This document shows, one piece after another, positions 4,040 through 56,833 of a stretch of DNA of 64,000 nucleotides. The notes beneath the pieces are model-generated. The model saw nothing but the letters and a program-made list of their open reading frames with translations. It did not search any database and had not been told where the DNA came from. Source of the DNA: Octopus vulgaris (taxonomy: Eukaryota); the NCBI GenBank assembly GCA_951406725.2, contig OX597824.1, positions 72,168,001 to 72,232,000 on the forward strand. The letters run 5' to 3'. The translations under genes were made by a program, and so were the position numbers. How positions within the stretch are numbered: the first letter of the stretch is position 1; every line of letters starts with the position of its first letter.

Positions 4040-4120
4040 AGCTTACGGCTGTTTCTGCTATAAGATGCAGCAGACTCTTAGTTGAGGGCCTGAATAACAT
4101 CCTATAGCTTCATCAGAGCC
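4040..4120 (-). ncRNA. Type-I hammerhead ribozyme motif
   Basis: Minus strand reads GGCU-CUGAUGA-A-GCUAUAGGAUG...CAUCUUAUAGC-A-GAAAC-AGCC-GUA^AGCU. 11-bp stem II; A.A mismatch at the base of stem II. Confidence 0.7.
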
Positions 4121-13399: not shown

Positions 13400-13512
13400 G
13401 ACAATGTCAACGTGTTCCTTGAGGCATGTCGAAACACTTTCGGTCTAACTAACACTCAGTTATTCGACAGCTGTGAACTACAGGACTTGTCCCAACGAGC
13501 AATTGCAGACAA
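13400..13512 (+). CDS. LMO7: Coding exon of an LMO7/LIMCH1-like protein (CH domain), phase 0 to phase 2
   Basis: Long pyrimidine tract, TTTTAG acceptor, AA|GTAAGT donor. Encodes DNVNVFLEACRNTFGLTNTQLFDSCELQDLSQRAIAD, which aligns with the LMO7-type CH segment DNINVFLKAC..GL...QLF...DLQDLS.R. An invertebrate gene may be co-orthologous to LMO7 and LIMCH1. Confidence 0.9.
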
Positions 13513-13706
13513 GTAAGTTTTATCATTGCTTAAGAACTTTAGTTGTTGCTTTGTTTTTCTCTTTTTTCTTTTACTGATGTTGCTGTTGCAGGTTTTTTTC
13601 TTCTTCTTTTTATTCCTTTCTATTAAAACTGCTTCTGTTTACATTGTTGTCTGAATTTCCTTGCTTGTGTATGAATGCTGTATGATGGCATATACATATG
13701 TATATA

Positions 13707-13916
13707 TATAAGTAAATAAATGGAGTTGAACACAGATGCTATTCAAATTCTTTTACTTTCGACATATGTTTCGAAAACAACATTGGTCTTATTCCAAAGG
13801 AATAAACAGTGTAAAATGCAATCTTCTCATCAGGAAAGAAAGAGAACCTATCTCAACAACAAGACATTATAACAATTTGAATAGCATCTGCGTTCAACTC
13901 CATTTATTTACTTATA
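13707..13916. repeat. 43-bp inverted repeat enclosing the hammerhead
   Basis: 13707-13749 (TATAAGTAAATAAATGGAGTTGAACACAGATGCTATTCAAATT) is the reverse complement of 13874-13916 with one mismatch. Confidence 0.9.
13748..13846 (-). ncRNA. Type-I hammerhead ribozyme, intact core
   Basis: Minus strand reads CUUUC-CUGAUGA-GAAGAU...GUUUUC-GAAAC-AUAU-GUC^GAAAG. Stem I is 11/13 paired, stem II is long, stem III is the palindrome ACAUAUGU. Predicted cleavage between 13761 and 13760. Confidence 0.85.
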
Positions 13917-14061
13917 CTACACAAATTACTGCACATTAACCTGGAGTTTCTACCTTTGAATAGGTCGCTACATCCTTGTTACTTGCGTGAATTTTGCTAC
14001 CCTGGTAACTGTTTATTGAATTTTCCATGTTAACGGTAAACAAAGGATAATTCATTCATCC

Positions 14062-14114
<53 letters not shown>

Positions 14115-44576: not shown

Positions 44577-44673
44577 ACAGTCACCTCTGATGAGCACAGG
44601 GCTACATAATTAGACAGTTACCTAACATTCCGTTGAACACCCTAGTGTGAAACCAATTGGTAAGATCAGCTGT
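44577..44673 (+). ncRNA. Type-I hammerhead ribozyme motif (partly decayed)
   Basis: CUGAUGA(44587-93)-GCACAGGG...CCCUAGUGU-GAAA(44649-52)-CCAAUUG-GUA^AGA. Palindromic stem III; weak stem I. Confidence 0.65.
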
Positions 44674-56427: not shown

Positions 56428-56470
56428 GACAACTCATTTGAAAGAGGAAAATGATCGAAGATTGAGAAAC
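56428..56470 (+). CDS. LMO7: Coding exon of the LMO7/LIMCH1-like protein (CH domain), phase 2 to phase 0
   Basis: TTCTTTCCCTTTTTCTTTTCAG acceptor and AAC|GTAAGT donor. Completes AA+G (K), then TTHLKEENDRRLRN, matching LMO7 KQEETDRRVKN; phase-compatible with exon 13400-13512. Confidence 0.9.
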
Positions 56471-56742: not shown

Positions 56743-56833
56743 AATTGGCTGATGAGTACTCAGCATCTTAAATCTGTTGTAATACTTACAACATTTAATA
56801 AAATGATGTAGTACGAAACGGTCGTACCAAATT
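56743..56833 (+). ncRNA. Type-I hammerhead ribozyme, intact core, sense to the host pre-mRNA
   Basis: AAUUGG-CUGAUGA(56749-55)-GUACU...AGUAC-GAAA(56815-18)-C-GGUC-GUA^CCAAAUU. Stem II is extended by UGUUGUAA/UUACAACA; predicted cleavage after 56826. Confidence 0.8.

Follow-up and report, generated by a model that had tools for sequence, protein, structure and literature searches.

Endonuclease (EN)-bearing Penelope-like elements (PLEs) have a standard insertion product, a truncated copy in inverted orientation whose tail is confined to one side (PMC8557442; PMC3846280). The first of these accounts calls the origin of the inverted ends and tails an open question (PMC8557442). The inverted pLTR insertions of such elements, e.g., Adineta Pen2a, combine a head-to-head truncated copy, a one-end tail, a microhomology junction, TA-rich flanks, a hammerhead in the pLTR, and an Asn-rich RT-EN insert, and the family described here shares all of these features (PMC8557442; PMC3846280). 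For Poseidon PAc of the green anole, it is reported that in vitro both strands are cut, that two internal start sites delimit the tail, and that uncleaved RNA is used (PMC11167929). The window that we analyzed, i.e., the whole 64,000-nt stretch of Octopus vulgaris DNA (C11:72168001-72232000), very probably contains at 13707-14066 a 360-base remnant of a Hydra-clade Penelope-like retrotransposon, in which two 5'-truncated, hammerhead-bearing ends lie head to head between TA-rich flanks, likely through one insertion event; the 43-base arms are the overlap of the two ends, and the remnant is likely without host function. The feature is real but an ordinary Penelope-like insertion.

The locus had come to attention through a sequence-only reading, which described a minus-strand hammerhead enclosed by a 43-bp inverted repeat and offered two interpretations. 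The first, an inverted Penelope-type terminal repeat, was right: the sequence derives from the pLTR of an element that encodes a protein. The arms (13707-13749 and 13874-13916) match at 42/43 positions, as had been stated, and pairing stops beyond them; the single mismatch, at 13732, places an A opposite a C. The extent of the feature was correct only at its start, 13707. It does not end at 13916, and the right arm runs on for 150 nt as the same element to 14066. The short-end piece is 98% identical to the reference copy L024:821-1822 and 92% identical to both pLTRs of L198, and the corresponding values for the long-end piece are 94% and 91%. TA-type flanks, in which no target-site duplication is readable, are present at both ends of the window insertion and could have been partly synthesized during insertion. 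The 23-mer that spans the junction of the two pieces occurs once in the 2.8-Gb genome.

Table 1. Features of the insertion and of the host gene around it (window coordinates)
Feature	Position	Strand	Basis or remark
Host coding exon, calponin-homology-like peptide, GT donor at 13513; outside the element	13400..13512	+	RNA contigs
Intron containing the insertion, 42.9 kb	13513-56427	+	
Short TA-rich left flank	13690..13706	.	placement of the boundary ambiguous within TA
Short-end piece, 5'-truncated pLTR fragment with hammerhead, stopping at the family's fixed short end	13707..13878	-	reference 681-852 of L024:821-1822
Left arm, final 43 nt of the short-end piece; inner end overlaps outer pairs of stem I	13707..13749	.	
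Type I hammerhead motif	13748..13846	-	core motif and covariation in sister families
Stem I	13846-13834 with 13760-13748	-	11/13 paired
Core CUGAUGA	13833-13827	-	
Long stem II	13826-13773	-	
GAAA	13772-13769	-	
Head-to-head junction, 5-nt microhomology between the two pieces	13874..13878	.	
Long-end piece, inverted 5'-truncated fragment, arm and tail	13874..14066	+	reference about 808-1002 of L024:821-1822
Right arm, initial 43 nt of the long-end piece	13874..13916	.	
150-nt tail; belongs in the parent to the 5' UTR of the unit that follows, stopping 52 nt short of the AUG	13917..14066	+	L198 internal context
(TA)n right flank	14067..14111	.	
Next host exon	56428..56470	+	RNA contigs

The parent element can be read from other copies in the genome. 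In L198, a member of the same subfamily, 193-bp direct pLTRs with a hammerhead in each surround an ORF, and in L207, L209, and L211, from sister families, the ORF is likewise flanked by pLTRs or partial tandems. The parent has one RT-linker-GIY-YIG ORF, with the GIY-YIG-type part upstream of the hammerhead and the RT motifs farther upstream. By motif, family and sister copies carry DKT, QFDI, MGS, and YRDD in the RT and IY..YIG at the C terminus. DKT stands in place of DKG, and the RWL variant in place of RWK, in 4/4 proteins with an N terminus; CxxC-E and CxH lie beside E and N of the C-terminal EN in 4/4 proteins with a C terminus; and the CCHH cysteine pair, read by eye, is absent from that domain. 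Intact ORFs of 778-904 aa occur in the sister families. Among the copies examined, none from the window's own subfamily had an uninterrupted ORF, and Pfam and PDB sequence searches with the element protein recognized neither its RT nor its endonuclease. The linker of L081, L082, L085, and L024 contains in-frame (AAT)n poly-asparagine tracts of variable length, which resemble the Asn-rich inserts described for rotifer Penelopes (PMC3846280). A sister Hydra-like family (L201-L204 and L207-L210, e.g., C10:96298843) has many near-identical intact 899-aa ORFs, and its tandem and inverted copies are 98-99.9% alike; it has likely been active recently.

The published description of the Hydra clade (PMC8557442) includes a single ORF, a C-terminal GIY-YIG, DKT, RW(L/K), no CCHH, CxxC and CxH around a conserved E and N, a canonical hammerhead, and TA flanks, all of which the Octopus family shares. 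The family differs from that description in having no CxCX5C linker, a much longer stem II, and full units of ~3.2-3.7 kb versus under 3 kb (PMC8557442). The CxCX5C motif is found in 0/4 proteins of the Octopus genome with a linker region versus 34/45 database homologs. Based on motifs and unnamed homologs rather than a tree, the family appears to be a Hydra-like variant that lost this motif. Hydra-1_Obim of Octopus bimaculoides seems to be a separate family, differing by eye in its N-terminal protein sequence and its hammerhead (PMC8557442). Other identities were considered and set aside: Neptune (its CX2-5CxxC linker motif is present in 0/5 proteins), Naiad (the EN is C-terminal, not N-terminal), and a MITE (copies share neither the same terminal inverted repeats nor a junction). 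A literature search conducted mostly outside subscription journals and Repbase returned no description of the Octopus family or of a 150-nt tail.

A 24-mer from the arm has 569 exact matches in the 2.8-Gb genome, and a similarity search gave 1965 first-look candidates, of which 40 were scored; the best pieces, the window itself aside, are 86-98% identical. Copies end at two fixed places, 54 nt (short) and 204 nt (long) past the predicted ribozyme cut and thus 150 nt apart. Of 91 distinct contexts of the 24-mer, 47 are followed by a TA-type repeat and 43 by the tail; the remaining one shows neither. The tail of 150 nt, like those of 151 and 159 nt in two sister families, compares with a published 30-40 nt, which is a typical value and not a strict definition (PMC8557442).

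Are the two kinds of end combined at random? For a sample unselected by architecture, we used the first 100 listed of the 569 matches; four places sampled earlier were not taken again, and 10 duplicates among the 88 loci were dropped, leaving 78. Two-part calls were made in 51 of these; 7 had spurious low-complexity partners and were removed, leaving 44, of which 13, with a single end at a non-standard place, did not enter the pairing count. The 31 two-part copies with two standard ends comprise 30 short+long, 1 short+short, and 0 long+long (p=1.5e-8 versus 50%), so that the one-end tail rule can be put, for the Octopus family, at 30/31. In the similarity-search sample, which overlaps the pattern sample in a few loci, 28 of 62 unique loci are head to head, of which 22 are short+long and none is a like pair. 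TA repeats directly follow 59/72 standard 3' ends in the pattern sample. The sole short+short copy is L133 (C2:60026250-60026399), in which both pieces begin at the palindromic stem III and a TA run lies between them. Several loci represent one insertion multiplied by segmental or tandem duplication (L095-L101 at C1:21.08-22.29 Mb, L013/L029, and L117-L119); duplicated insertions were merged before the pattern-sample count, and L013 and L029 were kept as two in the similarity-search sample.

The two arms of one insertion are also related in subtype. At subfamily-diagnostic bases, 42/260 (16%) are mismatched between arms of one insertion, versus 39% +/- 4% in random pairs, in a comparison of 42 arm pairs that includes a few duplicates. 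That arms of one insertion usually share a subtype indicates that the halves come mostly from one RNA or from sibling RNAs. In L006, L010, L029, L091, and L149, the arms differ at 3-4 diagnostic sites. We considered whether halves come from different parent copies as a rule and rejected it; the arms are mostly of the same subtype, and such an origin is true of a minority at most.

How would two unlike ends come to be joined? We posit that the endonuclease makes a cut in each strand of a TA-rich target, that reverse transcription would be primed by one target end at the short site and by the other at the long site, and that both cDNAs would stop early, their truncated ends then being joined, in the window copy, at a 5-nt microhomology. 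The sequence of these steps and their chemistry are deduced from end positions. The minus-strand piece crosses the predicted cut, and therefore it was copied from RNA that either had not been cleaved or had been religated. The family has in common with Poseidon PAc a pair of fixed start sites delimiting the tail, an AT-rich target, an uncleaved-RNA template, and no sign of ends at the hammerhead cut (PMC11167929). The PAc sites lie inside the ORF, 30-40 nt apart; in the Octopus family, 150 nt separate the two sites, and both precede the AUG, within the 5' UTR (PMC11167929).

The two-end model leaves unexplained three observations: the long piece often extends past the short site, there is one short+short copy, and a few copies have discordant arms. 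Simple L1-type twin priming on one RNA predicts no long piece past the short site without strand displacement or a second RNA. We also weighed whether the inversion postdates the insertion, through a further, independent insertion event, a DNA rearrangement, or, as has been proposed for rotifer Penelopes, self-priming on an antisense template. Some copies do have arms of different subtypes, as a later or independent origin would allow, and self-priming is a published proposal for head-to-head repeats (PMC3846280). Independent insertions, however, should give like-end pairs about half the time, and 1/31 is observed; an independent origin also fits poorly with arms that are usually of one subtype; and self-priming predicts mirrored junctions, yet many partners have no overlap (gaps of about 50-130 nt). 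We regard these routes as improbable and retain priming from the two target ends as the preferred reading.

What might define the two start sites? Alignment folding predicts two nested long-range helices around the tail. In the outer helix, 10 nt from the arm are predicted to pair with sequence around the start codon, with 97.8% of cells paired; no pair is changed on both sides, 7/10 pairs are invariant, and coding sequence makes up one of the strands. The inner helix encloses the long end and is 93.6% paired, with 3/10 pairs changed on both sides, double changes that represent few independent events among 14 related sequences. A single-sequence fold of the L198 pLTR-tail, no better than shuffles (z -1.2), has the outer helix present and the inner one absent, and so supports the pair weakly. 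We speculate, as a possibility that we hold to be rather doubtful, that in the family RNA these two helices bracket the 150-nt tail, that the arm hides the start codon in the outer helix while the covarying inner helix presents the long start site in its loop, that this fold would fix two start sites handed asymmetrically to the two target strands and would switch the RNA between message and template, and that TA targeting persists without the linker zinc finger proposed to mediate it. If the TA runs pre-exist insertion, then ends that abut TA despite the lost linker cysteines weaken the proposed link between linker and TA targeting.

The hammerhead in the window is inherited from the parent element. 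On the minus strand, it has the complete CUGAUGA/GAAA core, a stem I with 11/13 pairs, and a palindromic stem III (ACAUAUGU), and the C17 of its GUC lies at 13761, so that the predicted cut falls at 13761/13760, all as the sequence-only reading had it. Its description as "intact" holds for the core and not for stem II, which has a C-to-U change at 13776 relative to the family majority; the predicted pairing probability of stem II is 0.32 in the window copy versus 0.99 in a family-type copy. Across 12 copies of the sister families, stem I is 95% paired with 2/5 pairs changed on both sides, stem II is 96% paired with 4/11 pairs changed on both sides (figures that exclude the inner stem II hairpin), and stem III is 100% paired and invariant. 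Rfam gave no match at gathering score in the 64,000-nt window, and within 13500-14100 none of its hammerhead families matched at E<=10. The core is intact in 82/112 young copies. A case for selection on it among these copies is unconvincing, with a divergence of 3.3% versus 3.0-6.1% in adjoining stretches.

It had also been proposed that the minus-strand RNA folds as a ~210-nt rod. That rod is indeed far more stable than shuffled sequences (z -11.3 and -14.0 for the two strands, 0/200 shuffles as good), because of the arms, but the hammerhead is absent from its minimum-energy fold. The helices of the hammerhead have a predicted ensemble probability of <=0.04 in the rod, forcing the hammerhead costs 6.7 kcal/mol, and stem III is predicted to be unformed in every monomer fold. 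The window hammerhead is antisense to the host gene; to cleave, it would require transcription of that strand and likely a second copy with which to dimerize. Single PLE hammerheads had no detectable cleavage in vitro (PMC4209133), and the weak palindromic helix III suited to dimers, like the type I topology, is shared with metazoan PLE hammerheads and non-LTR retrozymes (PMC4209133; PMC7229834; bioRxiv 10.64898/2026.07.22.740005). Compared with non-LTR retrozymes, the window element is not tandem, has a single hammerhead, and has a coding parent (PMC7229834; bioRxiv 10.64898/2026.07.22.740005). One hammerhead and a protein-coding parent rule out a retrozyme identity. Elsewhere in the genome, L143:1452-3065 and L082:7974-8617 are retrozyme-like, with hammerhead-bearing units arrayed in tandem at 506- and 534-bp periods. 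A fossil of in vivo cleavage was sought as a peak of 5' truncations at the predicted cut and was rejected: 6/45 5' ends fall at 795-800 versus 4.7 expected (p=0.34).

The insertion lies in a host gene. A coding exon had been placed 195 nt before the element, and this stands (13707-13512 = 195): exon 13400-13512 is present in RNA contigs of 2/4 runs, four runs being taken as RNA and used as contigs only, and is joined there to 56428. The joining makes this a plus-strand host gene with a 42.9-kb intron and puts the hammerhead antisense to it. These contigs leave the unique intron flanks without coverage, the reads from the element stem from many copies, and an expression search listed no RNA dataset. 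The best PDB match of the exon peptide is Vav-3 (E=0.0025); the gene may be LMO7/LIMCH1-like. For its name, a DUF4757 search returned no match, which is uninformative, and atlas matches are all <0.9.

Could the insertion have been co-opted, with the 43-bp hairpin edited by ADAR or slowing splicing near the 13512 donor, or with an antisense ribozyme regulating the gene? The hairpin sits inside a transcribed gene, 195 nt from a donor; on the host strand, its pairing is the most perfect among the 15 inverted pairs <=2 kb apart in the window; and its mismatched A opposite C is a preferred ADAR context, all of which makes it a plausible candidate ADAR substrate. In three related organisms (A, B, and C), DNA contigs that begin in unique flank extend 19-22 nt into the element, a reach below the 31-letter bar and hence a weak hint that the insertion is common to the three, which would fit neutrality or function alike. 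This comparison extended to 14060, short of the TA repeat; organism D had no coverage at the junction, and no empty site was observed. In squid, ubiquitous edits are mostly in introns and 3' UTRs that overlap repeats (PMC9068888). Intronic editing of repeat hairpins is, however, common and would not prove function. The same intron (13513-56427) has many dispersed short repeats in both orientations, which form ten further inverted pairs within 2 kb, so that 11/15 of the pairs lie in it. Nor is the pairing conserved beyond expectation: no sign of selection was found on the window copy, with 1 difference/43 versus an arm-to-arm value of 5.9% for the family (P=0.27). The ribozyme is antisense, weakened in stem II, and disfavored in the rod, and the in vitro results cited above for single PLE hammerheads count against it as well. 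We consider co-option highly improbable, and the window copy likely has no host function.

Editing calls at this hairpin are confounded in a specific way. At position 13732, a G contributed by other copies accounts for 67-89% of the depth in four DNA runs, and further A-to-G differences from other copies appear in DNA runs at 13736, 13776, 13808, 13815, and 13846. Since other copies carry G at 13732, the A-to-G check that had been suggested is confounded, and unanchored RNA reads would mimic editing.

There remains the second interpretation of the sequence-only reading, a self-contained fold-back element of MITE-like or retrozyme-like kind, mobile as a 210-nt rod whose terminal inverted repeats enclose the ribozyme; near-perfect arms, a very stable fold, and the 5/44 two-part copies that also enclose the hammerhead between 42-54-bp arms speak for it, but its probability is close to negligible, given that the junction occurs once per genome, that the right arm extends 150 nt as element sequence, that the five enclosing copies all differ in junction and four of them enclose much longer pieces, and that the element to which the sequence belongs, as its pLTR, encodes a protein. 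A unique junction and an arm overlap that varies across similarity-search copies from -102 to +251 bp mean that there is no fold-back family. It had been stated in advance that arms unique to this copy would mark a one-off insertion scar rather than a family feature; the window insertion is such a scar, although the process behind it has operated repeatedly in the family of Penelope-like insertions to which we assign it.

As a single locus, it matters little, being one among hundreds of such scars with a layout that is already published. It does carry two warnings: hairpin and ribozyme motifs arise cheaply from Penelope-like insertions in the Octopus genome, and other copies imitate A-to-G calls in Penelope-like hairpins. 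The family is more useful for PLE mechanism: its tail is long, its ends follow the short+long rule almost strictly, its predicted helices are accessible to mutation, its linker zinc finger has been lost naturally, and the intact ORFs of sister copies could serve in vitro work. We see these family-level observations as modest leads on PLE mechanism.

The window also contains hammerhead-like motifs of other families. The one at 56749-56826 (+) lies ~280 nt beyond exon 56428-56470 in the same orientation as the host gene and would sit in the host pre-mRNA; it has good stems I and II and a fold z of -1.9, and it would be a better candidate for a host effect than the hammerhead at 13748-13846. A second, at 44587-44662 (+), folds no better than shuffles, and a third, at 4044-4116 (-), has a long stem II.
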